The notes under the pieces are model-generated. The model was not told the DNA's origin. It was given only the letters and a program-made list of their open reading frames with translations, and did no database searches. The position numbers were made by a program, and so were the translations under genes. From a virus (lineage: Duplodnaviria > Caudoviricetes): DNA of 64,000 bases. The stretch lies in IMG/VR virus record IMGVR_UViG_3300014204_000114, positions 1-64,000 of that record; one strand, written 5' to 3'. This document shows, piece by piece, positions 19,239-36,403 of the stretch (positions are counted from its first letter, which is position 1; every line of letters starts with the position of its first letter).

Positions 19239-20519
19239 TTAGAATTTCAAACGCAGACGAACGACCTTGTTGGACGCTCCCGCGTATGTGATATTATTCG
19301 GTAAACCGCCAGTAGCGCTACCAGACATCTGATTGACTGTGCCTAAGCTCGTGTACTGAGTCTGAACATATTCCAGATAGTCTTTCGGGAACACATCGGT
19401 CTCAAGGACCTGACCGCAGATTCTCTCTACGTAATGCTGAATATTCGTAGTAGAGTTAGATGCACAGGTTGCCGCAACAAAGTTAGAGTTAGTATCAAAC
19501 GTCACGAACTGGCCAGCCTTCAAATCGCCGACAGCACAAGCATAAGTCGATACGCTAGCAGGGGCAGCGGCATAATGATAATAAGTCAAAGTTGCCGCGC
19601 CAGCTAAAGCCGTGGGAATCGCATTACCGCCGGACTCATACATAAAGACTATACCACGAGTATAATCGATATAGAAGTCGCCAGCAGCTATGATCTCGTC
19701 AATCCCGCCTACTTCTTTAACGAATACGGTAGAGTTGACATTAGCGCCAGCGGCAGATAACCACGCCCACAGGGTAATCGGAGTGCTCTTAGCTACAGGG
19801 GCATACAAAGTTACATAAGCTACAACGTTAGTCGCAACATCTGCAAACTCAGCATTTCCAACTATAGCGGTATGATCGAACCAGCCCTTAGCACGCGTCG
19901 CATCAAATGCAGCCGCGAAGTTACCCGGAGTGCTATCGATACTCACGTTAATAGATTCTGTGGCCTGACTCGTCGGAACAAGAGGTACTTCGATATATCT
20001 CTTGCAGAGGATCGCTACCTGATGCTGCATATTATAATTATAATTCGTGTAGTCAGCAGGATTAAATCCATCACCGCCAGCCCACTTCAAGTAGTTGTAG
20101 AATGCAATACCGACAGGACGAGAAATCGCCATCGCGGTGCCAGTTCTACCCATGAAGCTAGCAGTCGAACCATCAATGGTAGACAGCGTAATCGTAGCGC
20201 CCGCAGTAACTGCAACGCCAGTACGGATGTCTATTGTCCCTTGAGTCACGTCATCAGCAGTATAGGTAAGGGTCGTTGCGGTAGCCAGTCCAGCCGGAAC
20301 CACATAACCGTCATTGTCAAAAGCGACAATCTTACCAGCGCTGATTACGTACCAATTTTCGTAATACTTATCATAGCGACTAACTGGCAGCCATGACGCC
20401 GGCCTAAAAGTACCGGCGGGAACATCTCCTTCGGATATGGAGAAGTTGGGAGTCCAGTTACCTACATGGTCCCATTGTTTCATATTGGGAGTCAGCTGAT
20501 TAACTGTATTCAAACTCAT
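19239..20519 (-). CDS. Head decoration/minor capsid protein
   Basis: Between protease and capsid genes; Ala/Thr-rich, beta-rich. Confidence 0.55.
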   Translation of the reverse strand: MSLNTVNQLTPNMKQWDHVGNWTPNFSISEGDVPAGTFRPASWLPVSRYDKYYENWYVISAGKIVAFDNDGYVVPAGLATATTLTYTADDVTQGTIDIRTGVAVTAGATITLSTIDGSTASFMGRTGTAMAISRPVGIAFYNYLKWAGGDGFNPADYTNYNYNMQHQVAILCKRYIEVPLVPTSQATESINVSIDSTPGNFAAAFDATRAKGWFDHTAIVGNAEFADVATNVVAYVTLYAPVAKSTPITLWAWLSAAGANVNSTVFVKEVGGIDEIIAAGDFYIDYTRGIVFMYESGGNAIPTALAGAATLTYYHYAAAPASVSTYACAVGDLKAGQFVTFDTNSNFVAATCASNSTTNIQHYVERICGQVLETDVFPKDYLEYVQTQYTSLGTVNQMSGSATGGLPNNITYAGASNKVVRLRLKF

Positions 20520-22525
20520 ACGTTATTTCCTCCTTGGTTTTTCTTCTTCTGAATCTCTTCAACAAGTTTCTTAAATTCGTCAGCGTTTGCAGGGATTAAA
20601 CGCCGAGCCGCAGCATCTTTAAACAGCCTATCGGCTGCTATTTGTCCGTTATTAAGCAATGTTTCGTGCCATTTTTCTACGAAATTCTCGACTACTTTCT
20701 CGTCATATTGAACAACTCTGGAAGTAGCCTCGACAGCAATTGTGGGATCCGGCACAGCGCCAGTTGGCACCCTGCTCATCCCATCTCTGATCTTACCTGT
20801 AATTTTAGAAATGTCAACACTTTCGATAAGTTTAGTTGCAGAAAGTTCAAGTGCTTCCACGCCGAGTTTAATGTTGTCCGCTCTTAAATCTTCGATAGGT
20901 TTCGCGTCAAGTTTTTCAGCGGTACCTAAAAATTCAAGAAGCGCATTATAGTCGGATAAAAGCGCCCGATATTTCTTTAGAAGCTTAACATGGTTGTCTC
21001 TTATTGATTCGGAATCGCTAGAGAGAACTTCCATATCTAACTTAAAAGCTTCTAGCTGAGTTGTCATTTCGTTAATCTTCGCTTCTAGAGGCTCTTTGGT
21101 ATTCTTTACGCTTTCGGTAATAAGAGTCTGATGCTTTTCGTTAAGTTCTTTTTCAAGTTTAACAAAGTCCTTTTCGCTCTTATCGCAGCCTAAGCCTTTA
21201 GCTTTACGACTCACGCAAGCAAGTATTTTTTCTTTACTACCAGGGCCTTTATATCGACCTATAAGTCTACGCGCAGCTACAACTTTCGAACACGATGTTA
21301 CAGGGAAGGACCGGTTGGGTCCGCAGAACGCGCTGTTAGGCAATCGTTTCCTTTGGGCCGCAGAAAGCTTAGCGTCGTCAAGCTCTTCAGGTTTTACACC
21401 CTCAGCCTCAGCGACTTCATTCTTAATATATTCTTGCTCCTCAGGCTCCATTTCTTTAAACATAAGCTGATAAATAAAATCAGCTTCGTCTTCTGTGAGT
21501 TGTTCCGAGGATATGTCTATCGTGTCGAAATCTAGAGGTTTGTTTTCTGCGGTGGCCGCGGGCGGAGTTGCAGGCGGAGTGGTATCGCAGTTGCAAGGAG
21601 GAGCAGGAGGATCGGTTACGGGAGCACTATCTGCCAGATTAATCGTAGGTTTAGAAGAATCAAATAATGATCCGTCGCCGCCTACCATAAACGACATAGT
21701 CGCATCCAGAACTTCGTAGTCTTTAGCTACTATCGAGTAATCCTTCTTTTCTTTATCCTGGAATACGCCAGAATCACCGGCATTATCCTGAACAGAATTA
21801 AGAATCGAAGAAACTCTTGCGTAGACGTCAGCAGGACGATTGACAAAAGATACTTCGTCGTACATTAAACTGCCGACGATAAGATACATTTCCTGGCCGT
21901 CATGGATAGTCCCGGGATAATGATCGCAAGGACCGTCAACTACCCAGTCTTGCTTGCATATACTGCAAATCGCAGAGTCGGATACTGCGCCAATCGAAAC
22001 TGTTGAATGCCTGCCGTCCATAATCTTTTCGGCTGCATCCTTATCCGATATAGCTACAGTTAAACGAATATGCCCCAAACCACTATACGAATTAGAAAGC
22101 TGCTTGTCTCTTGTTATATTATCGATAAGATCGCCGACAAATTTTACTCTATCGACTACAGGTAACGCTTCGTCAGAGACAGCATTAATCAAAGTATTAT
22201 ACTTATCTGCTTTCTTTCCTTCTTTCTTCTGTATGACCATGCCCGAAGTATCTATATACTCCGAATTAATAACCCTGCCTATAGGATCAGTCATATCGTT
22301 ATGATGTAACTGAACGGGTTTTGGGTATGGGCTCACAAAAGATTCCGCGCCGTTTCTCATTTTATCGGGAAGATAAAAAGTATGGTTGCGCGTGATTATA
22401 CCGGCGTGAGTAGCGTCAATTGTTACATATAACGTCTTACCGGCATTTAAACCCTGTAATACAAAGTCCTTCTGTTCGTCTGAAGGTTTAGGGACTTTGC
22501 ATGTTGCATCGAAAATATTAAACAT
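20516..22525 (-). CDS. Prohead protease / scaffold fusion
   Basis: HND...PIGR, TVSIG, CSIC...CDHYPG and EVSFVNRPAD protease motifs; coiled-coil C-terminus. Confidence 0.8.
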   Translation of the reverse strand: MFNIFDATCKVPKPSDEQKDFVLQGLNAGKTLYVTIDATHAGIITRNHTFYLPDKMRNGAESFVSPYPKPVQLHHNDMTDPIGRVINSEYIDTSGMVIQKKEGKKADKYNTLINAVSDEALPVVDRVKFVGDLIDNITRDKQLSNSYSGLGHIRLTVAISDKDAAEKIMDGRHSTVSIGAVSDSAICSICKQDWVVDGPCDHYPGTIHDGQEMYLIVGSLMYDEVSFVNRPADVYARVSSILNSVQDNAGDSGVFQDKEKKDYSIVAKDYEVLDATMSFMVGGDGSLFDSSKPTINLADSAPVTDPPAPPCNCDTTPPATPPAATAENKPLDFDTIDISSEQLTEDEADFIYQLMFKEMEPEEQEYIKNEVAEAEGVKPEELDDAKLSAAQRKRLPNSAFCGPNRSFPVTSCSKVVAARRLIGRYKGPGSKEKILACVSRKAKGLGCDKSEKDFVKLEKELNEKHQTLITESVKNTKEPLEAKINEMTTQLEAFKLDMEVLSSDSESIRDNHVKLLKKYRALLSDYNALLEFLGTAEKLDAKPIEDLRADNIKLGVEALELSATKLIESVDISKITGKIRDGMSRVPTGAVPDPTIAVEATSRVVQYDEKVVENFVEKWHETLLNNGQIAADRLFKDAAARRLIPANADEFKKLVEEIQKKKNQGGNNV

Positions 22526-25500
22526 CAGTTATTCTCCTCTTGTTCTATTTTACAGACACAGCCAAAATGGAAAGGCGGGATATCCTCAATAGAAAAGTTT
22601 TTGTTTTCAATATCGAGAACAGCGCGCTTACAAATCTTACATTCTTTATCTTCGCCAGCTATTATTGTTTTAACTCCTAAATCGCTAAAGGCACATACTT
22701 TACCAATATTATATGCCTTCGAACTCTCAGTCTCGCTAATAAATACCAATCTATAAGTATAGGAATCTAATATGCTATTAGCTAAATTTATCTTATCATT
22801 AATATCATTACTGTCAATACTTAGAATTTTAGAAGTTACATCGTTAAATAGTTTTCTTACAAAAGAATCTATTCTGTTGCCGAATTCAGTTTCCCATTTT
22901 CTTATTACGTAAGGACTCGCTATAGGTCCGGATTTAGAATCCTTATATCCATTAATAAGAGCGCTTTTAACTAAAAGTTTACACTCTCTTGTTAGAAGAG
23001 ATTGATGTAGTTCGTTGTACGCTTTTATAGAAGACGCGTTCAGAGAATTATCATTAATAAGTTTTACTATAACATCTCTGTAACTGTCCCACGCACTTTT
23101 TATATTTGAAGAAGATTCTTTATCCCAAAATCTATAAGTCTTATTAAATAAAAGGTTTAAAAGTGTTATAAAACTATACATGCCTGAAACTATATCTTTT
23201 GTAGTCCCGGGAGCCAACTTCTTTCCGTGTTGGTTAGAAGGTTGATCTTTTGATTTTGCTTCTGATGCCGCACCAGATTTAGCTTTTATATTAGAAGAAC
23301 TATTCTCAGAATAAGGTTCGTCAATAGACTGCATAAGAACTTCGGGCTTTTTAAATAATTCCCAGTAGGTCCTTTTAAACTCTTCTTCGTCCAAAGGTTC
23401 TCTTGAGAGTTCCCTACGATATTCTTCGAAGGTTATACCGTTACTATTGAAACAGTTAGTGGCATGATTTTCAACTTTAATTCTTGACTCAAGATCTATT
23501 TCGTTAAATCTGATTCTGACGATATTCTTCTCGTCTAATACAGTGTCACCAAAAGTCGACTCTAGTAATAGCTCTTTAATTATAAATTCATTTACGAATG
23601 TTTCGAAGACTAATTGGAAGTCTTTTACATCATCAACCGCAGCTCTGGAAAGAGTGTCAGCTGTCGCACGATTAGTTGAATTCCCCTGAATAGTAGTTTT
23701 ACCATTCCTACGAGTTACAAATAAGTGGTTAGGTACATTATAACAATAAATCATACCGTCATAAGAACATTTAGATATCATTTTTGAGTCTATGATCCTA
23801 TATGTCTTGCCGTACCCCCCGCTTATCAAAACTCTATACATATAGCCGTCTGGGTTTAAAGATCCCTTTTGATTTTTATATTTAGCAACTTTAGCCATAT
23901 ACCCTAAAGACATAGCCAAGACCTGGACGTCATTAGCAAGCCGCTCACTTGACGTAAAGTAAGTAGAATTTATTTTAGGATACTTATAGCAAACATATCC
24001 GTCTCCTGCTAATAGAGATGTTAATAAGGACTTCCTAGACGCCTTGTCCCAAGAAAATATTTCTCTAGGAAGGTTCTTATTTTTTGCGCCATGGCCCACT
24101 CTATCCCTAAAATACTCATAAATATTTTTGCCGTATATCTTGACACAAATACTTTTACTGTGTTTGACCCCACAAAGGGAGCTAATCGAGGTATCTCTTT
24201 TATCTTTTTTACAACTATAAGTAACTCCTATACGATCCAAGAGAGAAAGAATAGAGTCTAGTTTTTCCCCAGAATTCTGAGTTATATTAATTCGGTAAAA
24301 GCTTCTATCTCCATTATACTTATCTAAATTACCTTCTGAAACGAACCAGCCTACAAAAGAAGCCCAATCCTGCATCGAACAAGTGATAGCTTTTGACTTT
24401 CTGCCTCTTTTAACTTTGGCTGAAGGTAGATGGAACTGGATATCACCCTTCTTTTTCATTTCTGCAAACTCAGCAGTCTCAAGCATTAAAAACTCACTAT
24501 ATTCTCCATCAAGCAAATCCATAGCCTTGACTTTATGCCAGTTGGGTCCTAAAAACTTATTATCTAAAGAAGACCTATGACAAACCCACATCTCGTGGTG
24601 AGGCGTAACTTTAATATCAATATGCTTACCGTTAAAACAAATCATATCCCCAACATATCTACCCTCGTATTTATATGTTGCTGTGTGAAATTCTATTAAT
24701 TCGGTCTCTGGGTTATAAGTAGCTATTTTTTCTACAGAATGATCTATCTCATTATGAAATTTCCAGCCATTCTCAGTGAGGGTCATCGTTAATTCATCAT
24801 GACAATCGCCCTCGCCGAAGTCTACAGAAGACATTGCAAGTCCTGTAAAGACTCTGTTTTTAAAATGCTGTATGTAGGTTTCTACTTGAAGAGCTTTACC
24901 CTGAGCACCAATTGGAGTTATCTTATATCTTTCGCTCGTTACTATAGCTCCCTCGGAAGGCATGTATTGAATTTGACCCCTAAGGACCGCTATTTCAGAT
25001 TCACCTTTTTCGTTTATCCCCGCGGGTTTATCTTCCGTACCAACTTGAAAATGATAGAGAGGGAATAGGTACTCATATATTAAAAGTTCTACGTCTTCTT
25101 CTATTCTACGAAGAATCTGTATATCTTCTTTTACTGGAATAATTGATGGGCGCCCAAAAACAAATCCGGGCTTCCTATCATAATAAATATGTACTATATC
25201 TTCTTTATTGAAATTAACTGTCTTCCCGTAGAGTTCCTGTACCCATCTTTTTATATTCTTACTCTTGTCAATTTCAGCTTTAACGGTTTCAGCGGGGACT
25301 ATAAAATAACCAGCGATAGGCTTAAGTTCTTTTCCGTTTTCAGTTCTGATTTTGCCGCCGGAAGAGCTTGTATCTCTGACTTTAGCTACAAGAGTATTCG
25401 AAATCTTTATCAAGGAAGAAGCCATATCCCTAAAGAGAATCGCTGTTGGGATACTTGTGGCCGCGGATATCTGACGGAACCTTTCCTTAACGTAGCTTAT

Positions 25501-25836
25501 TGTCTCTTTGTTATTCCCTACAAAGTCGTAACCCTCTTTAAACATAGCCCCGATTTTTTTGCGGAAAGCCATGCTTACATAAGATTCGACGTCTTCTATT
25601 CTTCCGACTTCAGAAAGATCCCAATCGGACATTACGAACTGACCTGCAGCTCCATGTCTGCTATATGATATAGTGGGGTCTTTTGTAGGTTTTAATTGAG
25701 TTTTTAAAAGCGTAGGACTAGGCCTAGGAGCATCTACGACTTTGCTCTCGGCTGGAGAAACGGGATATATTTTAAAATCTATCTTCTTAAGCTCAGTTTT
25801 ACTCACTGGCATCAAGCTCCTCTTTCCATTTGTCAA
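22525..25836 (-). CDS. Portal protein with intein and C-terminal MuF-like domain
   Basis: EDIVHIYY...FGRPSI portal motif; intein insertion; C-terminal ETE...AYN-x-G...CKIC...PPFHFGCVC. Confidence 0.85.
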   Translation of the reverse strand: MTNGKRSLMPVSKTELKKIDFKIYPVSPAESKVVDAPRPSPTLLKTQLKPTKDPTISYSRHGAAGQFVMSDWDLSEVGRIEDVESYVSMAFRKKIGAMFKEGYDFVGNNKETISYVKERFRQISAATSIPTAILFRDMASSLIKISNTLVAKVRDTSSSGGKIRTENGKELKPIAGYFIVPAETVKAEIDKSKNIKRWVQELYGKTVNFNKEDIVHIYYDRKPGFVFGRPSIIPVKEDIQILRRIEEDVELLIYEYLFPLYHFQVGTEDKPAGINEKGESEIAVLRGQIQYMPSEGAIVTSERYKITPIGAQGKALQVETYIQHFKNRVFTGLAMSSVDFGEGDCHDELTMTLTENGWKFHNEIDHSVEKIATYNPETELIEFHTATYKYEGRYVGDMICFNGKHIDIKVTPHHEMWVCHRSSLDNKFLGPNWHKVKAMDLLDGEYSEFLMLETAEFAEMKKKGDIQFHLPSAKVKRGRKSKAITCSMQDWASFVGWFVSEGNLDKYNGDRSFYRINITQNSGEKLDSILSLLDRIGVTYSCKKDKRDTSISSLCGVKHSKSICVKIYGKNIYEYFRDRVGHGAKNKNLPREIFSWDKASRKSLLTSLLAGDGYVCYKYPKINSTYFTSSERLANDVQVLAMSLGYMAKVAKYKNQKGSLNPDGYMYRVLISGGYGKTYRIIDSKMISKCSYDGMIYCYNVPNHLFVTRRNGKTTIQGNSTNRATADTLSRAAVDDVKDFQLVFETFVNEFIIKELLLESTFGDTVLDEKNIVRIRFNEIDLESRIKVENHATNCFNSNGITFEEYRRELSREPLDEEEFKRTYWELFKKPEVLMQSIDEPYSENSSSNIKAKSGAASEAKSKDQPSNQHGKKLAPGTTKDIVSGMYSFITLLNLLFNKTYRFWDKESSSNIKSAWDSYRDVIVKLINDNSLNASSIKAYNELHQSLLTRECKLLVKSALINGYKDSKSGPIASPYVIRKWETEFGNRIDSFVRKLFNDVTSKILSIDSNDINDKINLANSILDSYTYRLVFISETESSKAYNIGKVCAFSDLGVKTIIAGEDKECKICKRAVLDIENKNFSIEDIPPFHFGCVCKIEQEENN
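23680..24804 (-). mobile_element. 375-aa intein with LAGLIDADG homing endonuclease, in the portal gene
   Basis: Starts C-HDELTMTLTENGWK; ends IYCYNVPNHLFVTRRNGKTTIQG-N with +1 Ser; LAGLIDADG helices FVGWFVSEG and LLTSLLAGDG. Confidence 0.9.
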
Positions 25837-27634
25837 CAGTCTCCTGGTCTACACCTTCTATCTTGCCTGAACAATTAGAAAAGTCAATAGTTACAGATCT
25901 GGAGACATAATCTTCCTGAGTTCGTTTTAGTAACTCCGGAGTTTCATTATATGTCGGTACCGTCGGAGTCGCAGAATTGCCGACCATATAAGTTTTAAAT
26001 CTTTGAAGACTAGGAGTCTCCCACAAGTTAATTACGTTCGATGAAGGCTCTAAAAAAGCACTGGATTTTTGAGAGAGAGTTAATAGTCCCCTGTCGTTCT
26101 CCGATAATACTATAGAAAAGTCCTCAAAATCGGAGTTCCTATCTAACACATCCTTGACCGACTGAATACTTTGTTCGAGTTCGTCTTTCTTATTATCGCA
26201 GGGCTTTAGTAACTTATTTTTAAGTATCGCCTCGGCTATACTAATAATGTACCCTAATTTTATAATAGCGTCTATATATGAAAGTAACGCTTTATCATAA
26301 TCACCCTTATCTCCAAATAAAGCCTTTAGGGCGCGAAGAGGAGTATTTAAAGCGTCCTCTAACATCTGTTTTCCTTCTCCAAGAGTCTGATACAAGACCC
26401 CAATTACTCCATTTTCGGCATTAAGTATTGTCTGCTTTATCTTATCCAGCTCTTTTGTAAAGTCTTCGACTACGGTAGGCTCATTACTCCTATCCAAACT
26501 ATTTGCTATTTCTTGCTGAGTAGGTCCTATGCCGAATAGTTTGGCGGTTCCGCCAGAAGAAGAACCTAAATCCATTAGTCCTAACTTAATAGCCTTTTGA
26601 ACATCTAACTTCTCTACTTGTTCTTTTAAAGAATCTATAATACAAACTATAGGCTGAACTATCATATCTATTAATTGGTCTATAAGAGTCCCGAGATTTA
26701 ACAGGATGTCCCCAAGCAAATCTCCCAGAAGACCTAACAAAATATCTTTAAGGCTATCTAAGTCGAAAGCTAGCATCTTAAGCATGCTTAAAATCATCAT
26801 AATAATTAGAACTAAATCGGGAACACACATGAAGTTTAAGAAGTCTAATAGATTGCACAGATCCATCATAAAGTTTCTATTCGTCAGTAAGTCAAGAAGA
26901 CTTAGCAATTCGTTAAGACGTCTCATTAACTCATCTAATAGACTATTGAGTAAGTCGGCTAAAGGGTTAAGCTGACTTAGGTCTATTATCCTAAACTGGC
27001 ACGGAATACAATCTTGTAAGAATCTAGATATTTTGTCAGACTGTGATTCTTTAGAGTTGGCTGCTGTCGCCCACGAGTTTTGAGTATCGGGAGGAAGTTC
27101 CATCCCCGCGAAATGTTTCATATTATACTGAGGCTCGTCAGCATAAGTCCCCTCGCTCATAAACATATTCTTCTCTATAGAAGGGGCCTGATTCATAATA
27201 TTGATTCTGTTCGGGCCGGCATTGGACCCCGGACGCTTTGTATACGAAGCTATTAAACGGTTTGTAGTTCCTATTTCTGTAGTATTAGTTTTACTTCTAG
27301 CGGAGTCAATCGTAGAACCGGTATTATCACTTGATATACCTGTACTTCTAGGGGCAGTCGAAGAATCCGGAGTGGTTACTCTTTGGGCTGCTTGTTGAGA
27401 GGTTTGATCTGTGGTAGTTGTGGCGCGATCTGTAGTTCCCTTTTTGGGAACAATTGTAACCTGATTTATGTATCCGTTTTTAAGACCTTTGGAAATAACT
27501 CTGCTAGATGAGGAGTTCTCGGACAGGAATCTATTAAGTAAGGAGTAGACTTTATGAGGCTCCTGAATAGAGTCATAAATTATTCCATGCTCGTATGTCT
27601 TAATTATAAATCTTGAGTCTATAGCTGTGTTCAT
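25799..27634 (-). CDS. Hypothetical 611-aa Leu-rich helical protein
   Basis: ORF between TerL and portal; Thr/Ser linker, CIPC motif, hydrophobic helices. Confidence 0.7.
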   Translation of the reverse strand: MNTAIDSRFIIKTYEHGIIYDSIQEPHKVYSLLNRFLSENSSSSRVISKGLKNGYINQVTIVPKKGTTDRATTTTDQTSQQAAQRVTTPDSSTAPRSTGISSDNTGSTIDSARSKTNTTEIGTTNRLIASYTKRPGSNAGPNRINIMNQAPSIEKNMFMSEGTYADEPQYNMKHFAGMELPPDTQNSWATAANSKESQSDKISRFLQDCIPCQFRIIDLSQLNPLADLLNSLLDELMRRLNELLSLLDLLTNRNFMMDLCNLLDFLNFMCVPDLVLIIMMILSMLKMLAFDLDSLKDILLGLLGDLLGDILLNLGTLIDQLIDMIVQPIVCIIDSLKEQVEKLDVQKAIKLGLMDLGSSSGGTAKLFGIGPTQQEIANSLDRSNEPTVVEDFTKELDKIKQTILNAENGVIGVLYQTLGEGKQMLEDALNTPLRALKALFGDKGDYDKALLSYIDAIIKLGYIISIAEAILKNKLLKPCDNKKDELEQSIQSVKDVLDRNSDFEDFSIVLSENDRGLLTLSQKSSAFLEPSSNVINLWETPSLQRFKTYMVGNSATPTVPTYNETPELLKRTQEDYVSRSVTIDFSNCSGKIEGVDQETVDKWKEELDASE

Positions 27635-28784: not shown

Positions 28785-30707
28785 TCAAAATTTTGATCGT
28801 TTAGCCGGTCTTAATCTTTCTTTGGCCGGCAAGCTAATTCTAGACTTTTTAACCGGAGGAGGTTCATCCCTATCAAATCCCGGATACCTCCATAGTTTTA
28901 TTCCGTTGTCGCGGTTTACATTCCCCGCCGGAATATTGTTTTTGCCAAGCAGTGGTATCTTTTCATTTCCTGTTCCTTGCCTTGGTTCAAAAGTCTTTAA
29001 CTCTTTCTTTTTATTCGGATCGTTAACAATTAAACCGCCCTCTTCGTCCCTAAAAGAACTTCGAGCGATATTTTCTACTATCATTATATCATTTCCAGAG
29101 GAAGAGCGTGCAACTTTGTCCCCCAGATTTATAGTAAAAGCTATTAGCGATAATTGCATCGCAGCTATATGATGATCGCCTACTGCCGGGTCAGAACTAG
29201 CATATCTGGGTTTGCCAGCTTCAGATCTATGCTCGATTATATAAGCTCTTAACTCATCAATTAAAGTCTTGTCTTTTGACGATATCTTGAAAAGACCCTG
29301 TTCGAATAGTCTTACTGAGTTTTCGACAATATATGGTTTGGCGGCTTTTTTAATTATCTCTCCATTAAAAGGATCTCTCGTTTCTATAGAAGAACCAAAG
29401 TCGTACTGTTTGACTATATCCTTAAGTTTCGAATCGGGATGCTCCGGACCTCTATTTATGTCTCTTATAGCTTCAAAGCCTATCCTTTTAAGGACCTCAT
29501 AATGCATCTCCCCATAACCCTTATCGACATATATATATTTGGGCCGCCAAAATCTATTTAATTCAACTAGCCCTTTTATAGCTGCAGTTTGAGACCACCC
29601 AACTCTTGAGATGACTTCAGACGCGAACTTTTTATAAACGCCATTTTTAGGGTTATAGCCAGTAACGCAATATACAGTTCCTACAGCCTCGCTGTTCCAA
29701 TCAACGCCTATTGAATAAACATAAGAATTGTCTCTAACTAAGTCTTCGTATTTATACTCTTGCAAAGCTTCCTGAACATATATATTTTGATAGACACCTT
29801 CTTCCTGCTCGCCGAACTCAGCCAAAACTTCGTGAATATAACCGGCTCTTGTTAGGTTCCTTTTAAACTCATCATCTAAGTCTTGAGTCCAGTTCGGGTT
29901 AACTTGAGAAGGAAAGTGAAACTCTTTATAAGTACAATCTATGCATCTTTTATAGAACGCCCCCCTCTGGCCAGTAGGAGTAGAGGAAAACCATATCTCG
30001 TTATCAGGGTAATTAGTAACAATAGCCATAGACGAATCTAAGTCGCCAGCAGCTAAATAGTCAGCTTCATCTTCTATCAATAAAGGAGCAGACGCACCAC
30101 GGACAGCATCGGCATTACCTCCCGATTTAGTGCCTGCAGTAAACCCCTTGACTACAGAGTTGTTAGCAAGTTTAATAGTGACAAACGGAGTCTTAGGTTT
30201 AGCTATAACAGATTCGTTCAAATACGGATTAGATATAATATGACTTACCATCCTATCATATATAATAGATATTTGAGAAGCATAAGGTGTTAGAAAGAGT
30301 GCCCCGTAAGCATTTCTTGTGTAAACCCGATGGAGAGCCTTAATAACTAAGACGTCTGTCTTGCCTGCTTGTCGCCCGATTCTGGATATCTTTCTAGCCG
30401 CAGTACATCTAAGCATTACAGCCTGATACCATCTCGCTACCCAAGGAGTGCCAGTCTTAGCGTCTATAATGAACTTTTCAGCCCAAAGGACCGGGTCTAA
30501 TAAACTCTTTAAAAACTCTTTTTCTTCTTCAGATATAGTAGCCGCTAAGTTAGGATCTATTAAATACTCCGGCTTTTTAATGCCGTGACATTTAATCTTA
30601 AACTCTCTCTCTTCGGGAAATTTTTTACAGTAATCTCTTATACAGTCCTTGCATGCAGGATCTATTGTTTCATCAAGCGTAAATGGTAGTTTTAGTTGTT
30701 TGCTCAT
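28785..30707 (-). CDS. terL: Terminase large subunit
   Basis: WYQ motif; Walker A IGRQAGKT; Walker B LLIEDEAD; STP coupling motif; RNase H-like IGVDWN and YVDKGYG. Confidence 0.93.
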   Translation of the reverse strand: MSKQLKLPFTLDETIDPACKDCIRDYCKKFPEEREFKIKCHGIKKPEYLIDPNLAATISEEEKEFLKSLLDPVLWAEKFIIDAKTGTPWVARWYQAVMLRCTAARKISRIGRQAGKTDVLVIKALHRVYTRNAYGALFLTPYASQISIIYDRMVSHIISNPYLNESVIAKPKTPFVTIKLANNSVVKGFTAGTKSGGNADAVRGASAPLLIEDEADYLAAGDLDSSMAIVTNYPDNEIWFSSTPTGQRGAFYKRCIDCTYKEFHFPSQVNPNWTQDLDDEFKRNLTRAGYIHEVLAEFGEQEEGVYQNIYVQEALQEYKYEDLVRDNSYVYSIGVDWNSEAVGTVYCVTGYNPKNGVYKKFASEVISRVGWSQTAAIKGLVELNRFWRPKYIYVDKGYGEMHYEVLKRIGFEAIRDINRGPEHPDSKLKDIVKQYDFGSSIETRDPFNGEIIKKAAKPYIVENSVRLFEQGLFKISSKDKTLIDELRAYIIEHRSEAGKPRYASSDPAVGDHHIAAMQLSLIAFTINLGDKVARSSSGNDIMIVENIARSSFRDEEGGLIVNDPNKKKELKTFEPRQGTGNEKIPLLGKNNIPAGNVNRDNGIKLWRYPGFDRDEPPPVKKSRISLPAKERLRPAKRSKF

Positions 30708-31534
30708 CCGAACACATTATGCATAAATTGGGCTTCGTTTCCCAAAGCCGTTCTGACATTGAATCCTGACTGCTGTATCATAGAAAGTGACTGCTGTCTA
30801 ATTGTAGCTACTGTCCCGTAGGGGTCTCTTATAGGAGTGCCGAAATTTATAATTCTTTCTCTGCGCGCTATTGCCGCTCGATTCTGCATTATATCCATGC
30901 CTACTTCAGCTGCAGCAAAAGCCCATAATGTCGGGGAAGTCATTGCGGCTCTCGCGGCAAATCCAACTCCGAATTTCGCTATCGCAAAGCCTCCGGATAA
31001 ACCGCCTCTTATAGCTCTTATACCAGCGGCAGTTCCGCTAACAACTTTACCTGAGCCAGCAGCTCTCGATGCAGTATATATATTCTTAATGTCTGTAGGT
31101 ACGCCGCCTAACCATTTTAGATTGGCCGGGTTAGTAACCTCAACCATACCTTTAGCAGTATTATACCCAAACTGAGCTTCTCCTTCTACGTGACTTGGGA
31201 TAAATCCAAATAGAAAACCGGCGGAAGTTTTAACGTTTTGAAAAGCCGCCCCACGAGAAGCCCAGACAGCATCAGTAATATTCATCCCGCCGAATTTGGC
31301 AGCCTTATACGCCTTGTAAGCAGAGCCTCTTCCCATTGCCATCTCGAAACCGGTCATAAAGACTAAAGGAGAACCTACGCCCTGCCATGCGCCGTTCTCC
31401 ATAGTCCCGGAAATAGTACTATATAAACCTAAGCCGCCAAGAGCCCCACCTATAGCGTACCTACGTCCTATCTTGCTCCCGTTTTTACCGAGCGATGATC
31501 CCCAGGAATCTTTAGCTGCTGTGTATAAACTCAT
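30704..31534 (-). CDS. Gly/Ala-rich membrane-type protein (possible internal/ejection protein)
   Basis: Composition and hydrophobic segments; position in the packaging module. Confidence 0.5.
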   Translation of the reverse strand: MSLYTAAKDSWGSSLGKNGSKIGRRYAIGGALGGLGLYSTISGTMENGAWQGVGSPLVFMTGFEMAMGRGSAYKAYKAAKFGGMNITDAVWASRGAAFQNVKTSAGFLFGFIPSHVEGEAQFGYNTAKGMVEVTNPANLKWLGGVPTDIKNIYTASRAAGSGKVVSGTAAGIRAIRGGLSGGFAIAKFGVGFAARAAMTSPTLWAFAAAEVGMDIMQNRAAIARRERIINFGTPIRDPYGTVATIRQQSLSMIQQSGFNVRTALGNEAQFMHNVFG

Positions 31535-31537
31535 TCA

Positions 31538-32362
31538 TTACCTTCGGTTATGTAAACCAAAAACAAGGCCGCCATCAACATTCATATTATAATGCGGCGA
31601 TGAAGCTTTTCCTCTTAATTGTTTTAAAGATTCAAAAGCGTCAGCGTCGGATATGCCTCTATAAAAAGACCCCATTATACCTTGAGATCCGGAACCCATA
31701 TTCGCTACCATCGAAAGACCGCCATACAAAGATGCTCCTTGAGTCATTGGAGCCCACCTTGGATGATAAGCGTTCATCTTCTTATATTCTCTAAGGTCTT
31801 TATATACCCCCATTTCGTTACGGATACCTAGAGCCATTGGTATTGCAAATGCTGCCGCGGGAGCTAAAACACTTCTTCCATACCATGCCCCTTTTGCCAA
31901 CCCTTTGACTGCCCCAATTCCGGCTCTTCCGCCCCAATACGTAGCCCCGCCAGCTAAACTACCAGCCCCCGCTGTCAAATACTCAAGTCCTTTAAATGGC
32001 ATTGCTGCCGCGCCAGCGCGAGCCCCAACACCCTTCATAAATGCCCTAGTCGGACTCATCCCAGATTTAGCGAAGTTGTTTGCCGCGTTTATAATCCCAG
32101 GCGACGTCTTAAGACTAAAAGCTGCACCGGCTAGTCCTAAAGCCCCTAAGCCTACCGCGGTAGACCCCGGGTTATCAGAAAAACCAATTCCAGCTGCCGC
32201 TCCGGCACCAAGAACTCCCCAGCCAGCCGCTTTTAAAGCAGTTGGGCCAAGACCAGATATAGCACTACCAATTGCAGCACCGACACCGATGCCAGCCGCG
32301 CCCACCCCTACTACAGGAGCAGCTGCCCCTAATGCTAATTTGGCTAGAGTCCGTTCTATCAT
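31538..32362 (-). CDS. Gly/Ala-rich membrane-type protein (possible internal/ejection protein)
   Basis: Glycine-zipper-like hydrophobic stretches. Confidence 0.5.
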   Translation of the reverse strand: MIERTLAKLALGAAAPVVGVGAAGIGVGAAIGSAISGLGPTALKAAGWGVLGAGAAAGIGFSDNPGSTAVGLGALGLAGAAFSLKTSPGIINAANNFAKSGMSPTRAFMKGVGARAGAAAMPFKGLEYLTAGAGSLAGGATYWGGRAGIGAVKGLAKGAWYGRSVLAPAAAFAIPMALGIRNEMGVYKDLREYKKMNAYHPRWAPMTQGASLYGGLSMVANMGSGSQGIMGSFYRGISDADAFESLKQLRGKASSPHYNMNVDGGLVFGLHNRR

Positions 32363-32363
32363 A

Positions 32364-35300
32364 CTATGCCTTTATATGCTTTCTCCCGCCATCTTTACCA
32401 TTCATCCACATTACTACTGTGGCGTCTTTGGTAAGATCGGCAGAAAACTGCTTTCTTTCTCTGTTTTTAAGTCCATTAATAGCCATCTCTTTATCCGCAC
32501 TCGAACTAGTCTTACTTTTTATTGTATCAAATTTCTTAGAAGTAGCAAAGTTGATCGTTCTCGAATACTCGGCCATGACTGCCGGGATCTTTGGTTCGGA
32601 TGTAGTTTCGCTAACTAAAGCCGTGACTTTCTTATCAGTATTAACATTATAGACGTTTTGAGAAGCTGTAAACTCAGCTGAAGCTGAATTAGGTAAGTAA
32701 ACTTCTGAAGGTCTCGCGGATTCGGTAGTGTAACCCGTCTTTATAGGATCGTTATATACCCCCTGCTGACGTTCTCCCCAACCACGAGAAGCTACTGAAG
32801 TAGAAGCCAGTATTTGGGAGCTTACGTCGGCGCCTATTCTATAGCCGGATCCAAAGTCAGTCTGTTCCTTTCTGCTGTCTCCGGACATACCAGATTCGCC
32901 AAGCCCTTCCATTATATTAACAGAATGACCTCTTCTTCTAGAAGCTCTTATTGCTCCCAGGTTTGAAGGCATGCCGCGCTTCGTTTTCTGAAAATCCTCT
33001 AAAGCCCACTTATATTGGGTCTCCGCGGATACTAAAAATTCCTTCCAACTTCTATGCTTCCAATAATTCTCTAAGGCTGATTCTTGCGGAAACTCATTCC
33101 AATCTATACCTCTTTCTTCCGCCATTACAGCCATAGCATCACGCTGCGCCATAAAGTTGCTTACTGCCTGTTTATAAAGAGTGTCGTCTGTTTTCCATCT
33201 AAAAGTTATCGGTTCTGCGTTAGGGTCTTCCATAGGATAATAGTTAATACTAGCATAAGGAAGATTCATCGTTTTAGCGTACCAGTTAGTCTGCAAGATA
33301 TGAGACATATAAGGCTTTTGGTTTTTCATCATGGTCTCATAACGGCCTTTCGTTAGAGACTTGATATCCATGACTTCATTTTCGAATACTACGTCGGCAT
33401 AACTCCTGACTCTTAAAATAGGATCTTCCACTAAGACTTCAGATTTTGCGCCTTTCTGTTCGAACCGTTTTTCTAATAGTCTATGATATGCAGTACCAAG
33501 CTCCATAGACGCTTTAGAATAAGGACTTTGCTCTTCTTCTTTCTCTCCTGTGATACCGGCTATTCTTCCGAAAGCGACTCCTTTCGCAGGATGCCCTACG
33601 GTAGAAGCACCTAACCATACGTTATATGGTCCCGGGTTATCATCCATTAGTATTTCTACAGAGTTGTATAATCCTCTATAACCAGAACCAAAGTCGGTCA
33701 TCTTTCTTCTTCTCTGAGAAGCGTAACCGTCATGCCTCAGAGCCTCTATAGTATTATAAGCATCATCTTTCGCGGAAATATATCCCGGCACAGTATTAGC
33801 TTGAGTGTTCCTTTGAATATCTTTTCTTGTATTGCCAGGGATCCCAGCGGCGTGGACATTTCTAGTTACTCTTTGTTTCCACGGAGTTCTAGAAGTAAAA
33901 ATGCGCCCGACTTTTCTTTCGGATTGGAATCTCTTGCCTTGAATGGTCCTCAGATCTTCTCCGCGCTGGACTTGGTTCAAAGCAGTACTTTGATAATAGT
34001 TCGACCTGAACGGATAACTTACATCTTTATACTTAGCCGATACATAAGAGAAGTTGTCGCCTTTTAGTATCCGGACATTCTCTCTATTAAAGCTCTGCCC
34101 GGATAAATTAGAGGGAAGATCGGTCGTTAATAGACCGGCATCTTCCGTCGTTCTTAAGCCGAGCTTGCCTTCTTCTCCGGCATACCCCATTTCTCTAAGT
34201 ATATGATCATTATTGGTTTCTATGCTAGGAGCACGATTAAAAATATTGTCGTATAGCGCAGTTACCGCAACAGCTCCAGCGACGCCAATAGCTAATCCCG
34301 ACGGCTTTATATACCCTTTGCTTAAAGTGGAAATATTTCCGGCAACACCACTAAAAAATCCAGAAACTGCAGATGTAGCTGTAGTTACTGTAGAAGAAGG
34401 AGATATTAAAGTCGGTGCTATATTTTTAGGAGCTGTTATAGCCGCCGCTGCTATTTTTTGCTTAGTAGCTGTATAAAAAGCCTGAGCGTCTGGAGGTAGT
34501 CCCGAAAAGTTCTTGTCGAAATACGATTCATATTGCCACGGGATTTTAGGTAATTCTTTTCTGGCTAGAACCTCATCTACTTTGGTCCCTGTTTTGTATA
34601 ATTCAGCTAAGAGCCATGCTCTTTTTTCGTCCTGAGAAAAACCTCCAGCCCGGGCGGTACTTAATAAGAATGGAAGAGCTTCCCTTGTATACCTAACGTC
34701 TATAGCCGGGTTATGAGCACCAGCTTCATATATAGCTCTTACGTCAGCAAGAGTTTTGATTTTAGAAGCGTTCGCTGCGGCGAGCATTGATTCGAGAGAC
34801 CACCCGCGCATTATTTTAGTATCGCCCTGTAGTAACTGAGCTATATGTAATTCTTCGTCTATTTGAGTCTTTAGGAATCCGAGCTCTTTAAGAGGAGAGA
34901 TTATGGACGCTTTTGCAAGTTTAGCAAGATCGAAGTATCTTTGTTGGGCTTTTGTTGTTGTTTTTTGATGGAACAGATTAATTATAGCAGGAAGAAGTTT
35001 AGCTCTTTCTTGGGATCTTGCCGCCTGAGATATTAAAGCGGGCTTATCGAACGACTCGATATTATGACCGACTATAACGGCATCCTGATCAAGCATTATC
35101 TTTGCCGCGTCGTCAGCAAACTCCAGCATCATCTTATCGATACTACTAAATGTCTTTAGAGCGCCGGTTTCTGCTTGATTCAACGCCAGACTAGCTTTTG
35201 AGCTTGCAGCTAGATACTTCCCCTGATCTATCTTATAAAATTTCCCTTTCCACTGTCTGTAGAACGGATTCTTTTGGTTTGTCTGTAGAATGCCCTCAGC

Positions 35301-35657
35301 TTCAGGGACCTCTTCGAGTCCTATAACATTTTTGATCGTAAATTCAGAAACATCCCCTTTTTCAACAAGATCCCAAGTAGCTTCCGGAGAGAGAGAATAA
35401 AGAGTTGTTTTGCCTTGATAGTGAAGACCTATCTGGATGACATCTACGTCTTTGGCGCCGGTTACGGCGTTTTTGCTGAATCTAGATGCGGACTTGAGGC
35501 TTTTTCTGCCTGTTGTGGAAGAGCCTAATTTTTCCTGATCCGGTAATCCCGTAGTTTCAACGTCAACAAATGCAACTTTACCCAGAGCTTGCTGAGAGTT
35601 AACAAGCTTGGATATAATGTCCGCGTCGGGCTTTCCGAATAAGTCTAAAAAGCTCAT
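32364..35657 (-). CDS. 1097-aa multidomain nuclease: DEDDh 3'-5' exonuclease + PD-(D/E)XK (Cas4/RecB-like) domain
   Basis: FVDVETTG, VGHNIESFD, AHNPAIDV; GTAYH...YADVV...MDIKS...QTNWY; two TDFGSGYR repeats. Confidence 0.8.
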   Translation of the reverse strand: MSFLDLFGKPDADIISKLVNSQQALGKVAFVDVETTGLPDQEKLGSSTTGRKSLKSASRFSKNAVTGAKDVDVIQIGLHYQGKTTLYSLSPEATWDLVEKGDVSEFTIKNVIGLEEVPEAEGILQTNQKNPFYRQWKGKFYKIDQGKYLAASSKASLALNQAETGALKTFSSIDKMMLEFADDAAKIMLDQDAVIVGHNIESFDKPALISQAARSQERAKLLPAIINLFHQKTTTKAQQRYFDLAKLAKASIISPLKELGFLKTQIDEELHIAQLLQGDTKIMRGWSLESMLAAANASKIKTLADVRAIYEAGAHNPAIDVRYTREALPFLLSTARAGGFSQDEKRAWLLAELYKTGTKVDEVLARKELPKIPWQYESYFDKNFSGLPPDAQAFYTATKQKIAAAAITAPKNIAPTLISPSSTVTTATSAVSGFFSGVAGNISTLSKGYIKPSGLAIGVAGAVAVTALYDNIFNRAPSIETNNDHILREMGYAGEEGKLGLRTTEDAGLLTTDLPSNLSGQSFNRENVRILKGDNFSYVSAKYKDVSYPFRSNYYQSTALNQVQRGEDLRTIQGKRFQSERKVGRIFTSRTPWKQRVTRNVHAAGIPGNTRKDIQRNTQANTVPGYISAKDDAYNTIEALRHDGYASQRRRKMTDFGSGYRGLYNSVEILMDDNPGPYNVWLGASTVGHPAKGVAFGRIAGITGEKEEEQSPYSKASMELGTAYHRLLEKRFEQKGAKSEVLVEDPILRVRSYADVVFENEVMDIKSLTKGRYETMMKNQKPYMSHILQTNWYAKTMNLPYASINYYPMEDPNAEPITFRWKTDDTLYKQAVSNFMAQRDAMAVMAEERGIDWNEFPQESALENYWKHRSWKEFLVSAETQYKWALEDFQKTKRGMPSNLGAIRASRRRGHSVNIMEGLGESGMSGDSRKEQTDFGSGYRIGADVSSQILASTSVASRGWGERQQGVYNDPIKTGYTTESARPSEVYLPNSASAEFTASQNVYNVNTDKKVTALVSETTSEPKIPAVMAEYSRTINFATSKKFDTIKSKTSSSADKEMAINGLKNRERKQFSADLTKDATVVMWMNGKDGGRKHIKA

Positions 35658-36403
35658 TTATCGAATGAGTCGACATCAATAACCGATTGGTCCGCAAGGT
35701 CCTTTACTTTAGCCGTAACGGCATTCACGTTAACTAAGAATTTAGCCATAGCTGTAGAAGCATCAGAGCCATCGGTCTTTTTAAGAGCCGCCTCCCTTTT
35801 ATACTTTTCTTGTCTGTCGCCAACCAGAAGTTTTATTATCCTAGACCTTCTGGCTTTAAGCCTTTCTTTTGCTTCCCAAAGAGGATTGACGCCGAGCATG
35901 GAAATCGGCTCTCCTTCTTTAGTCACTCCTACGACATTTTCGGTTACCATCTGCGCCATGTCCGGTTCAGCCATTGCCATAGTCGCCCTTAACTCCAAAA
36001 CATCAAGTTCGGCCAGCTCATTAGCCATACCGACTTCAGTAGGAGACATCGGATCGACTCCGTACTCATTTATATAACCTTCGCGCCAGACCATAAACAA
36101 AGAAACTTCCATAAAGCACTGTTTGCCCATTGGAGCTTTATTCATCTGCGCGAGAGGACAATTCTTTCTAAACACTTCAGGACATTTTGGACCGCCGCAC
36201 TTTAATGGCACCATAGCCTGAAGACCGGTCTTAAGATGAGCCAGATGGACCTTTAGCTTCTGCTTTTCTTCCGGAGTTAACTGTATTGACTCGTACGAAT
36301 CAATAGTAGTTTCGACGTTTTTTAAAAAAGCCTTCTTATCTAGCCCTTCATCTCTGACAAGGTTAGTATCTATGGAGACTAATGCTTTTACTTCGTCACT
36401 CAT
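35654..36403 (-). CDS. Probable terminase small subunit
   Basis: Helical ELAELD...NPLWE...R segment, Cys cluster, upstream of the packaging genes. Confidence 0.5.
   Translation of the reverse strand: MSDEVKALVSIDTNLVRDEGLDKKAFLKNVETTIDSYESIQLTPEEKQKLKVHLAHLKTGLQAMVPLKCGGPKCPEVFRKNCPLAQMNKAPMGKQCFMEVSLFMVWREGYINEYGVDPMSPTEVGMANELAELDVLELRATMAMAEPDMAQMVTENVVGVTKEGEPISMLGVNPLWEAKERLKARRSRIIKLLVGDRQEKYKREAALKKTDGSDASTAMAKFLVNVNAVTAKVKDLADQSVIDVDSFDK

Follow-up and report, generated by a model that had tools for sequence, protein, structure and literature searches.

What does a protein that carries a nuclease bracketed by two copies of the same short peptide do among the packaging and virion genes of a tailed phage? 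The question is raised by one gene (32364-35657, minus strand) in the IMG/VR virus record IMGVR_UViG_3300014204_000114 (Duplodnaviria; Caudoviricetes), of which positions 1 to 64,000 were analyzed here (the window, 64,000 nucleotides in full). The best reading of the sequences is that its product, P0001, belongs to a large, undescribed family of hypervariable polyvalent proteins, in which different enzyme cassettes are connected by a conserved peptide of about 40 residues, referred to below as the joint motif.

Organization of P0001

The gene is a single uninterrupted open reading frame (ORF) of 1097 amino acids (aa), and the first base of the start codon of the next gene lies within its stop codon. 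A previous sequence-only reading of this DNA had described the frame, two 27-aa stretches around a nuclease and a central hydrophobic helix. Direct reading of the ORF gives the same letters for both stretches, and the hydrophobic segment is located at aa 454-468. The TDFGSGYR octapeptide at their core occurs exactly twice, as had been claimed, while the core coordinates required correction to those listed here, the low ends given earlier being one codon short. Three elements had escaped that reading: a degenerate third copy position, the association of the motif with the anchor, and a conserved basic C-terminal tail. The parts of P0001 are as follows.

32364..35657, minus strand: gene of the predicted polyvalent protein P0001; at its start it overlaps the stop of c3, the next gene upstream.
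34653..35579, minus strand: DEDDh 3'-5' exonuclease, N-terminal (aa ~27-335), based on invariant columns in 11 orthologs.
34254..34298, minus strand: Gly/Ala-rich hydrophobic segment GLAIGVAGAVAVTAL (aa 454-468), which may anchor the protein in a membrane.
34134..34238, minus strand: decayed first joint motif (aa 474-508), its position set by the ortholog alignment.
33663..33785, minus strand: joint motif copy 1 (aa 625-665), core at 33675-33698 (aa 654-661).
33108..33560, minus strand: PD-(D/E)XK nuclease cassette (aa ~700-850), from phrog_1706, the structural model and Foldseek.
32835..32942, minus strand: joint motif copy 2 (aa 906-941), core at 32838-32861 (aa 933-940).
32367..32834, minus strand: C-terminal Ser/Thr-rich module (aa 942-1097), closing with the basic tail of the family (...WMNGKDGGRKHIKA).

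At the decayed position, aa 474-508, P0001 has TTEDAG where its orthologs have TDFGSG, and the motif profile does not detect a copy. The C-terminal region is shared with P0004, which is 49% identical to P0001 across aa 827-1096, and the basic tail appears to be a property of the family, as 71 of 148 relatives show the pattern ..W....GG[RK]xH.. within their final 25 residues, compared with 1.5% of random windows. A DDNPGP string after copy 1, which resembles a 2A-type sequence, was dropped as a candidate because it is not conserved in the orthologs.

A joint motif shared by a large protein family

A search of 1.84 billion cluster representatives yielded 289 proteins at E<=1e-3, of which 121 also pass E<=1e-10. 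Most of the 289 matches rest solely on query residues ~626-666, in 2 to 6 separate stretches per protein, and the iterated profile identified 441 copies in 148 of the 151 proteins retrieved, with 1 to 7 copies in each. The consensus extends over some 40 residues, [FI]SGKDDxYNTIEGLxHGGxAxxxRKxxTDFGSG[WY]xG, in which F32, G33 and S34 are conserved in 97-99% of the copies, G15, G20 and R26 in 92-94%, N11 in 88% and K/R27 in 69%. A profile built from 438 foreign copies, with P0001 and a close relative left out, scores the two copies of P0001 at 69.1 bits (E=1e-17) and 36.5 bits (E=2e-7), the E-values being calculated for a nominal database of one million sequences. By these scores the pair is far beyond chance, and the profile finds no third match elsewhere in the 187,794-bp genome.

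The DNA under the two peptides is diverged, as the sequence-only reading had noted: the two 27-aa stretches of P0001 share 46 of 81 nucleotides, with 20 of 24 in the core. Across the family, every synonymous codon of each invariant residue is in use, and the invariant Ser is encoded by TCN as well as AGY. This freedom of codons at invariant positions shows that it is the peptide, not the DNA, that is under selection. No model of the motif is present in Pfam, PHROGs or NCBIfam, a profile search of the PDB with the motif alignment returned nothing, and a full-text literature search for the motif strings gave no relevant paper.

The joint motif models as an unstructured peptide, not a fold. Modeled alone from 88 aligned copies, it reaches a mean predicted local distance difference test score (pLDDT) of 64; the basic stretch forms a single short helix in this model and all the rest is coil. 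Within the full-length model of P0001 its pLDDT is ~30. These low-confidence coil models point to an exposed linear element between folded cassettes. Its position is also quite regular, since a clear hydrophobic 15-mer is found in 105 of 148 proteins and a motif copy, usually the first one, follows it almost directly. The gap between the most hydrophobic 15-mer and the motif has a median of 2 residues, and it is no longer than 30 aa in 78 of 103 cases, compared with 12% of random positions.

Variable enzymes between the motif copies

The inner segments between motif copies have a median length of 230 aa, and their content is diverse. Pfam domains in 74 relatives include SNase (19), protein-kinase-type domains (17), DnaJ (2) and an intein (1), together with N-terminal exonucleases of the RNase_T, PolB-exo and RNase_H-like types, while PHROGs adds Cas4-like, RecE-like and endonuclease families among the relatives. 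The one intein-bearing relative carries Intein_splicing plus LAGLIDADG. A clear example is P0003, in which an SNase domain (428-544) lies between motif copies 292-336 and 611-655; in P0005, the kinase (1426-1599) comes after the last copy. The sequence-only reading had predicted swappable enzyme cassettes, and the SNase, kinase, Cas4/RecE-like nuclease and DnaJ domains, which lie between copies where positions were listed, agree with it, as do the HExxH segments of relatives.

The HExxH segments are of particular relevance here. HExxH is present in 48 of 151 relatives, against a chance expectation of ~3.5%, and the residues around it follow at least three conserved patterns (..TIxHER[FVL]H.., ..W[TV][MI]HEDxH.. 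and ..ETTLHEGLH..). The cassettes that contain it form at least three sequence families of ~175-235 aa. As no peptidase family was matched in the Pfam census of the 74 relatives, they may be undescribed zincin-like peptidases.

The two nuclease domains of P0001

P0001 itself codes for two nucleases. The N-terminal one had been recognized from sequence as a DEDDh exonuclease, an assignment that holds, with all the motifs intact: Exo I (D32/E34), Exo II (G197-H-N199...D204) and Exo III (H315...D320). Eleven aligned orthologs all keep D32, E34, N199, D204 and D320, and H315 lies within HNPAID. The profile match in P0001 is weak (phrog_192, E=0.0016) and the AlphaFold2 (AF2) model of the domain is of low confidence, but relatives match RNase_T at 2.6e-21 and phrog_192 at 1.3e-24, as well as DNA_pol_B_exo.

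The nuclease between the motif copies matches phrog_1706 (E=1e-11 over aa 706-840), and its core residues D755, D764, K766, Q789 and Y793, that is, D...(D/E)xK plus QxxxY, are invariant in the same 11 orthologs. AF2 of full-length P0001 with these orthologs gives a mean pLDDT of 40 and is usable for this cassette only, the single part modeled with confidence (pLDDT 70-85, aa 712-848). Foldseek with this part returned LHK-Exo (3syy, the best match, E=6.8e-6), lambda exonuclease (1avq), RecE (3h4r) and Cas4 SSO0001 (4ic1). However, no Cys is invariant or nearly invariant in the cassette among the 11 orthologs, so the four-cysteine Fe-S cluster of Cas4 is missing and the enzyme is of the lambda-exonuclease/RecB type rather than Cas4 proper. 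The earlier description as a Cas4/RecB-like nuclease is supported by the profile, the catalytic residues and Foldseek.

One genomic slot and a second carrier

In 51 related IMG/VR loci (contigs of <=191 kb), we found exactly one motif-bearing ORF each; several of these loci are near-duplicates, and distinct C-termini indicate ~37 distinct proteins. The order c3, P0001-type gene, Gly-rich genes (c6, c1, c7/c8/c16), large terminase (TerL), c5, c2 and portal is maintained in 48 of the 51 and in this genome. Within this constant neighborhood, the P0001-type genes themselves vary from 724 to 2418 aa, with 1 to 6 motifs. A motif restricted to this phage and an architecture that never changes were two of the three outcomes that the sequence-only reading had named as speaking against its proposal, and neither was found: the HMM search that it proposed gives 441 copies of the motif, spread over 148 proteins, in which they flank enzyme domains of various kinds in genes of conserved synteny, and the genes of this single slot differ in both length and cassettes. 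The placement among packaging and virion genes is also as described, between c3 and TerL and upstream of the portal, protease/scaffold and major capsid genes.

The motif is also found on a second carrier. The motif-bearing ORFs of three loci (L035:10010-17242, L040:9077-14587 and L029:9008-11686) are orthologs of ORF 4321-8430 of the window, outside the head module (blastp E=1e-81 and 3e-92). This ORF codes for a giant protein in the slot of the tape measure, and in these three loci the giant is extended at its N-terminus by cassettes that the motif connects, among which L035 has a nuclease like that of P0001. The genes of the window that bear on this comparison are listed below.

35654..36403, minus strand: c3 gene, 249 aa, directly upstream of the P0001-type gene in 42 loci; homolog of 0305phi8-36 gp112.
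31538..32362, minus strand: Gly-rich hydrophobic protein ending in ...GGLVFGLHNRR, a tail that resembles that of 0305phi8-36 gp114 (...GDLVFAMHNMR).
30704..31534, minus strand: c1 gene, Gly-rich, with the C-terminus TxRQxSL...ALGNEAxxxH in 45 loci; homologs are ME3_12 and 0305phi8-36 gp115.
28785..30707, minus strand: large terminase (phrog_2, E=3e-22), with tblastn matches to TerL of MTATph1, ME3 and 0305phi8-36.
25799..27634, minus strand: c2 family protein, between TerL and portal; homolog of ME3 gene 18.
22525..25836, minus strand: portal of 1103 aa (median in related loci, ~546 aa).
20516..22525, minus strand: prohead protease/scaffold fusion P0152; aa 27-241 match 0305phi8-36 gp123 (E=3e-34).
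4321..8430, minus strand: giant in the tape-measure slot, 1369 aa; the copy of this genome does not contain the motif.

By TerL, the nearest cultured phages are Moorella MTATph1, Acinetobacter ME3 and Bacillus 0305phi8-36, and the best explanation is that the family belongs to uncultured contractile-tailed phages of 120-190 kb related to 0305phi8-36 and ME3. The comparison with these two phages is informative. Gene 11 of Acinetobacter phage vB_AbaM_ME3 (AND75172.1) occupies the same slot as P0001 and has the DEDDh exonuclease and the hydrophobic segment, and its tail (...NNRNKHYMY) resembles by eye the ...NNRxxHHxM ends of P0001 orthologs. Neither ME3 nor 0305phi8-36 has the cassettes or the joint motif. 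ME3 gene 11 is then a carrier without cassettes or motif, and for this reason the cassettes seem to have been inserted into a conserved carrier. The gp112-gp116 block of 0305phi8-36 contains homologs of c3 (gp112) and c1 (gp115), as here, and no exonuclease gene. Mass spectrometry underlies the annotation of gp113, gp114 and gp116 as virion proteins, and their genes lie in the interval that separates the c3 homolog from TerL.

Among the neighbors, the c3 protein is a possible small terminase, with four invariant cysteines (C69, C74, C82 and C96, in CxGxxCPFxxxCP...C). It is also homologous to ME3 gene 9, over the C-terminal half of that gene, which carries an RNA methyltransferase annotation; a profile of c3 gave nothing meaningful against the PDB. 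The block between the P0001-type gene and TerL consists of Gly/Ala-rich hydrophobic proteins with conserved C-terminal endings (...TMRQRSLQAI..NGR.ALGNEA...H in c1 and ...STxGLVQGLHRGRHG in c6). By eye, the tails of c6 and c1 are similar to the first half of the motif, but the half-motif profiles do not match these tails and lend the resemblance no support. The c2 proteins have six invariant cysteines (C209, C212, C260, C270, C331 and C479) and are often encoded by two tandem genes. The portal probably holds an intein-type insertion, given its length of 1103 aa and a LAGLIDADG_3 domain (Pfam E=2e-12, aa 604-673).

P0152 keeps the conserved blocks of its family, and there is a lead from it to Peptidase_S77/S80. 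Together with the match to gp123, this indicates that a prohead protease is present in the genome, and, being the sole protease identified in it, P0152 is the candidate processing enzyme. It was found through homology to gp123; searches of this genome with Pfam Peptidase_S77 and S78 had no match, and phmmer of P0152 against the PDB gave nothing meaningful. Inside the protease domain there is a CxxC...CxH insertion, conserved as far as 0305phi8-36 gp123, which may be a zinc ribbon. Between this gene and that of the major capsid, a 426-aa beta-rich protein (19239-20519, minus strand; homolog of ME3 gene 21, E=2e-19) occupies the slot of the putative head decoration protein gp124 of 0305phi8-36.

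Probable packaging in the virion and proposed roles of the joint motif

The family follows a single plan, with a constant DEDDh exonuclease, a hydrophobic anchor, variable enzyme cassettes and a short basic C-terminal tail, in which every junction, including the one directly after the anchor, is formed by the unstructured peptide of ~40 residues. As this succession of anchor, joint, cargo, joint, cargo and tail recurs on two carriers that are or adjoin virion components, we consider it probable (about 0.75) that the polyvalent protein is packaged in the virion and ejected. It would be packaged together with the neighboring Gly-rich proteins and would then pass into the host. The joint would be the site at which cleavage frees the cassettes from the anchor and from one another, either by the prohead protease/scaffold protein P0152, by a cassette-borne HExxH peptidase if one is present, by a host protease or by self-cleavage, with the outcome that several small enzymes could be delivered from a single gene.

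Such a release function of the joint, freeing the cassettes from the anchor and from each other, is a tentative proposal to which we give somewhat less than an even chance. It is favored because a copy of the motif sits exactly at the boundary of the anchor, because the motif is disordered and strictly interdomain, and because one third of the members carry HExxH peptidase-like cassettes. In SPN3US, moreover, a prohead protease is established to cut some of the head proteins that are packaged, an abundant ejection protein among them (PMC10052503). As for the bonds that might be cut, N11-T12, E14-G15 and G33-S34 are our guesses, made from conservation.

Several observations weigh against cleavage at the joint. 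HMMs of the three HExxH types find no such cassette in P0001 or in the whole genome, and the post-anchor copy of P0001 is precisely the decayed one. No universal dedicated protease was found for the motif-bearing family, nor does any near-locus gene co-occur specifically with the motif, the same neighbors being shared by ME3 and 0305phi8-36, which lack it. Heads and tails of contractile-tailed phages assemble separately, so a prohead protease should not reach the motif-bearing giant of the tail module. The family also has no cultured member in the collections searched, as tblastn of P0001, P0005 and P0008 had no match in 50,697 GenBank phage records, and among the 185,579 GTDB genomes scanned there were pattern matches, yet no relative. 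Finally, the site of the SPN3US protease is made up of three residues (PMC10052503), and 40 conserved residues far exceed the needs of known phage protease sites.

A motif of this length, with a basic helix (R26 92%, K/R27 69%) flanked by the hydrophobic F32 and W/Y36, would be easier to understand if it were bound rather than cut. In this main rival to a release site, the joint is a docking or packaging tag, a linear peptide that would gain order on a conserved surface of the virion (the capsid interior, portal, scaffold or tube lumen) and tether each cassette there for encapsidation, and the whole multienzyme chain is ejected in one piece. The C-terminal coat-binding helix-turn-helix of the P22 scaffolding protein and the cargo-loading peptides of encapsulins are analogues of this kind. 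The number of motif copies scales with that of cassettes and the motif is disordered alone, as binding motifs are, while the basic tail common to the family, similar by eye in the Gly-rich neighbors, hints at a shared incorporation signal. Yet the half-motif profiles fail to match the tails of those neighbors and no partner was identified; besides, a partner in the head interior leaves the copies in the tape-measure slot without explanation, as docking does with the copy directly after the hydrophobic segment. We regard docking as unlikely, if still the strongest competitor of release.

If the motif had no specific partner at all, it could be mainly an evolutionary joint, a tolerated flexible linker kept for recombinational swapping of cassettes. 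The order and content of the cassettes do differ greatly among syntenic genes, and the similarity of half-motifs follows the adjoining cassette type, as expected if breakpoints fall inside the motif: it is 0.61 versus 0.55 for the N-terminal half when the upstream cassette type is shared and 0.50 versus 0.46 for the C-terminal half when the downstream one is, with types taken from a stricter clustering of the inter-motif segments, as single linkage over-merged them. This effect is small and confounded by relatedness, however, and neither a linker nor recombination needs at least 10 nearly invariant residues, or a peptide kept over diverged DNA (46/81 nucleotides in P0001, Ser from both codon families), which makes this explanation improbable. 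Even less likely, in our opinion, is a protein that never enters the virion, namely, a membrane-tethered intracellular DNA-processing enzyme of the packaging module that would, for instance, trim or resolve concatemers or degrade host DNA near the packaging site, with the motif as an interdomain element specific to the family. Two nucleases in a slot between a possible small terminase and TerL would suit such a role, as would the exonuclease being the conserved part of the family. But kinase, SNase, DnaJ and HExxH cassettes and their extreme variability misfit core packaging, the same cassettes are fused to the tail-module giant, and homologs of the neighboring genes are virion proteins.

Comparison with known systems

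The closest described proteins are the polyvalent proteins of Iyer, Burroughs, Anand, de Souza and Aravind (2017, PMC5512222), to which the sequence-only reading had already likened P0001. The likeness is borne out by several effector domains, the terminase-portal context and a variable architecture. In both cases unrelated effector enzymes are combined in one polypeptide, with kinases and nucleases among them. Iyer et al. put forward zincin peptidases as processing enzymes of polyvalent proteins (PMC5512222); in the present family, the HExxH cassettes of 48 of 151 relatives are candidates for such a role, but P0001 and its genome have none. The family of P0001 differs in its fixed carrier plan and in the single conserved 40-residue joint at every junction; it also lacks a MuF anchor domain, and its gene is located upstream of TerL, not after the portal. 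The word "linker" does not appear in the text of PMC5512222, in which searches on repeats and on cleavage or processing brought up no such interdomain element.

Ejection proteins of other phages offer a second parallel. The T4 internal proteins (IPs) and Alt, the inner-body proteins of phiKZ and the E proteins of SPN3US are packaged in the head, ejected, and cut by a protease encoded near the scaffold and capsid genes (PMC10052503, PMC5694885), and a protease/scaffold gene is likewise present in this phage. Their sites, in contrast, follow a three-residue consensus and mostly serve to remove N-terminal propeptides, whereas the motif described here is long, lies between whole enzymes and is also found in a tail-module protein.

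On the tail side, enzymes fused to tape measures, such as gp96 of Thermus phage P23-45, place enzyme domains on a protein of the tail lumen that enters the host; we know of no repeated joint motif in them. The giants of L035 and L040 use the motif to link cassettes to a protein in the tape-measure slot, while in this phage the cassettes are on a head-module carrier. Outside phages, the picornavirus polyprotein has conserved Q/G junction sites that are cut by the 3C protease. Like viral polyproteins, the P0001 family has several enzymes in one frame, a recurring junction sequence and, in one third of the members, a peptidase-like cassette; unlike them, it belongs to DNA phages, its protease cassette is not universal, and its junction element, a putative cleavage site, is much longer. 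The resemblance to protease-processed ejection proteins and to viral polyproteins is one of logic, not of sequence.

Implications for phage biology

Phages inject enzymes along with their DNA, but only in a few model phages is it clear how a set of different enzymes is loaded and then released. A single conserved peptide, present in at least 289 protein clusters and on two carriers, provides a defined and mutable element for studies of the packaging, ejection and release of cargo. If the joint were sufficient for release or packaging, it could be used to load proteins of choice into phage particles. The list of cassettes, with nucleases, kinases, HExxH domains and many domains that have no family, is in turn a catalogue of candidate enzymes for host takeover and counter-defense in uncultured phages. 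Whether the joint goes further and acts as an autonomous, portable release or loading signal, self-cleaving or read by one universal virion or host factor, is a bolder idea that we consider rather doubtful. If it were true, any enzyme could be plugged into an ejected carrier borne by the head or by the tail, and these phages would have a natural plug-and-play cargo system, comparable to the cargo-loading peptides of encapsulins or to polyprotein junctions and undescribed for tailed phages.

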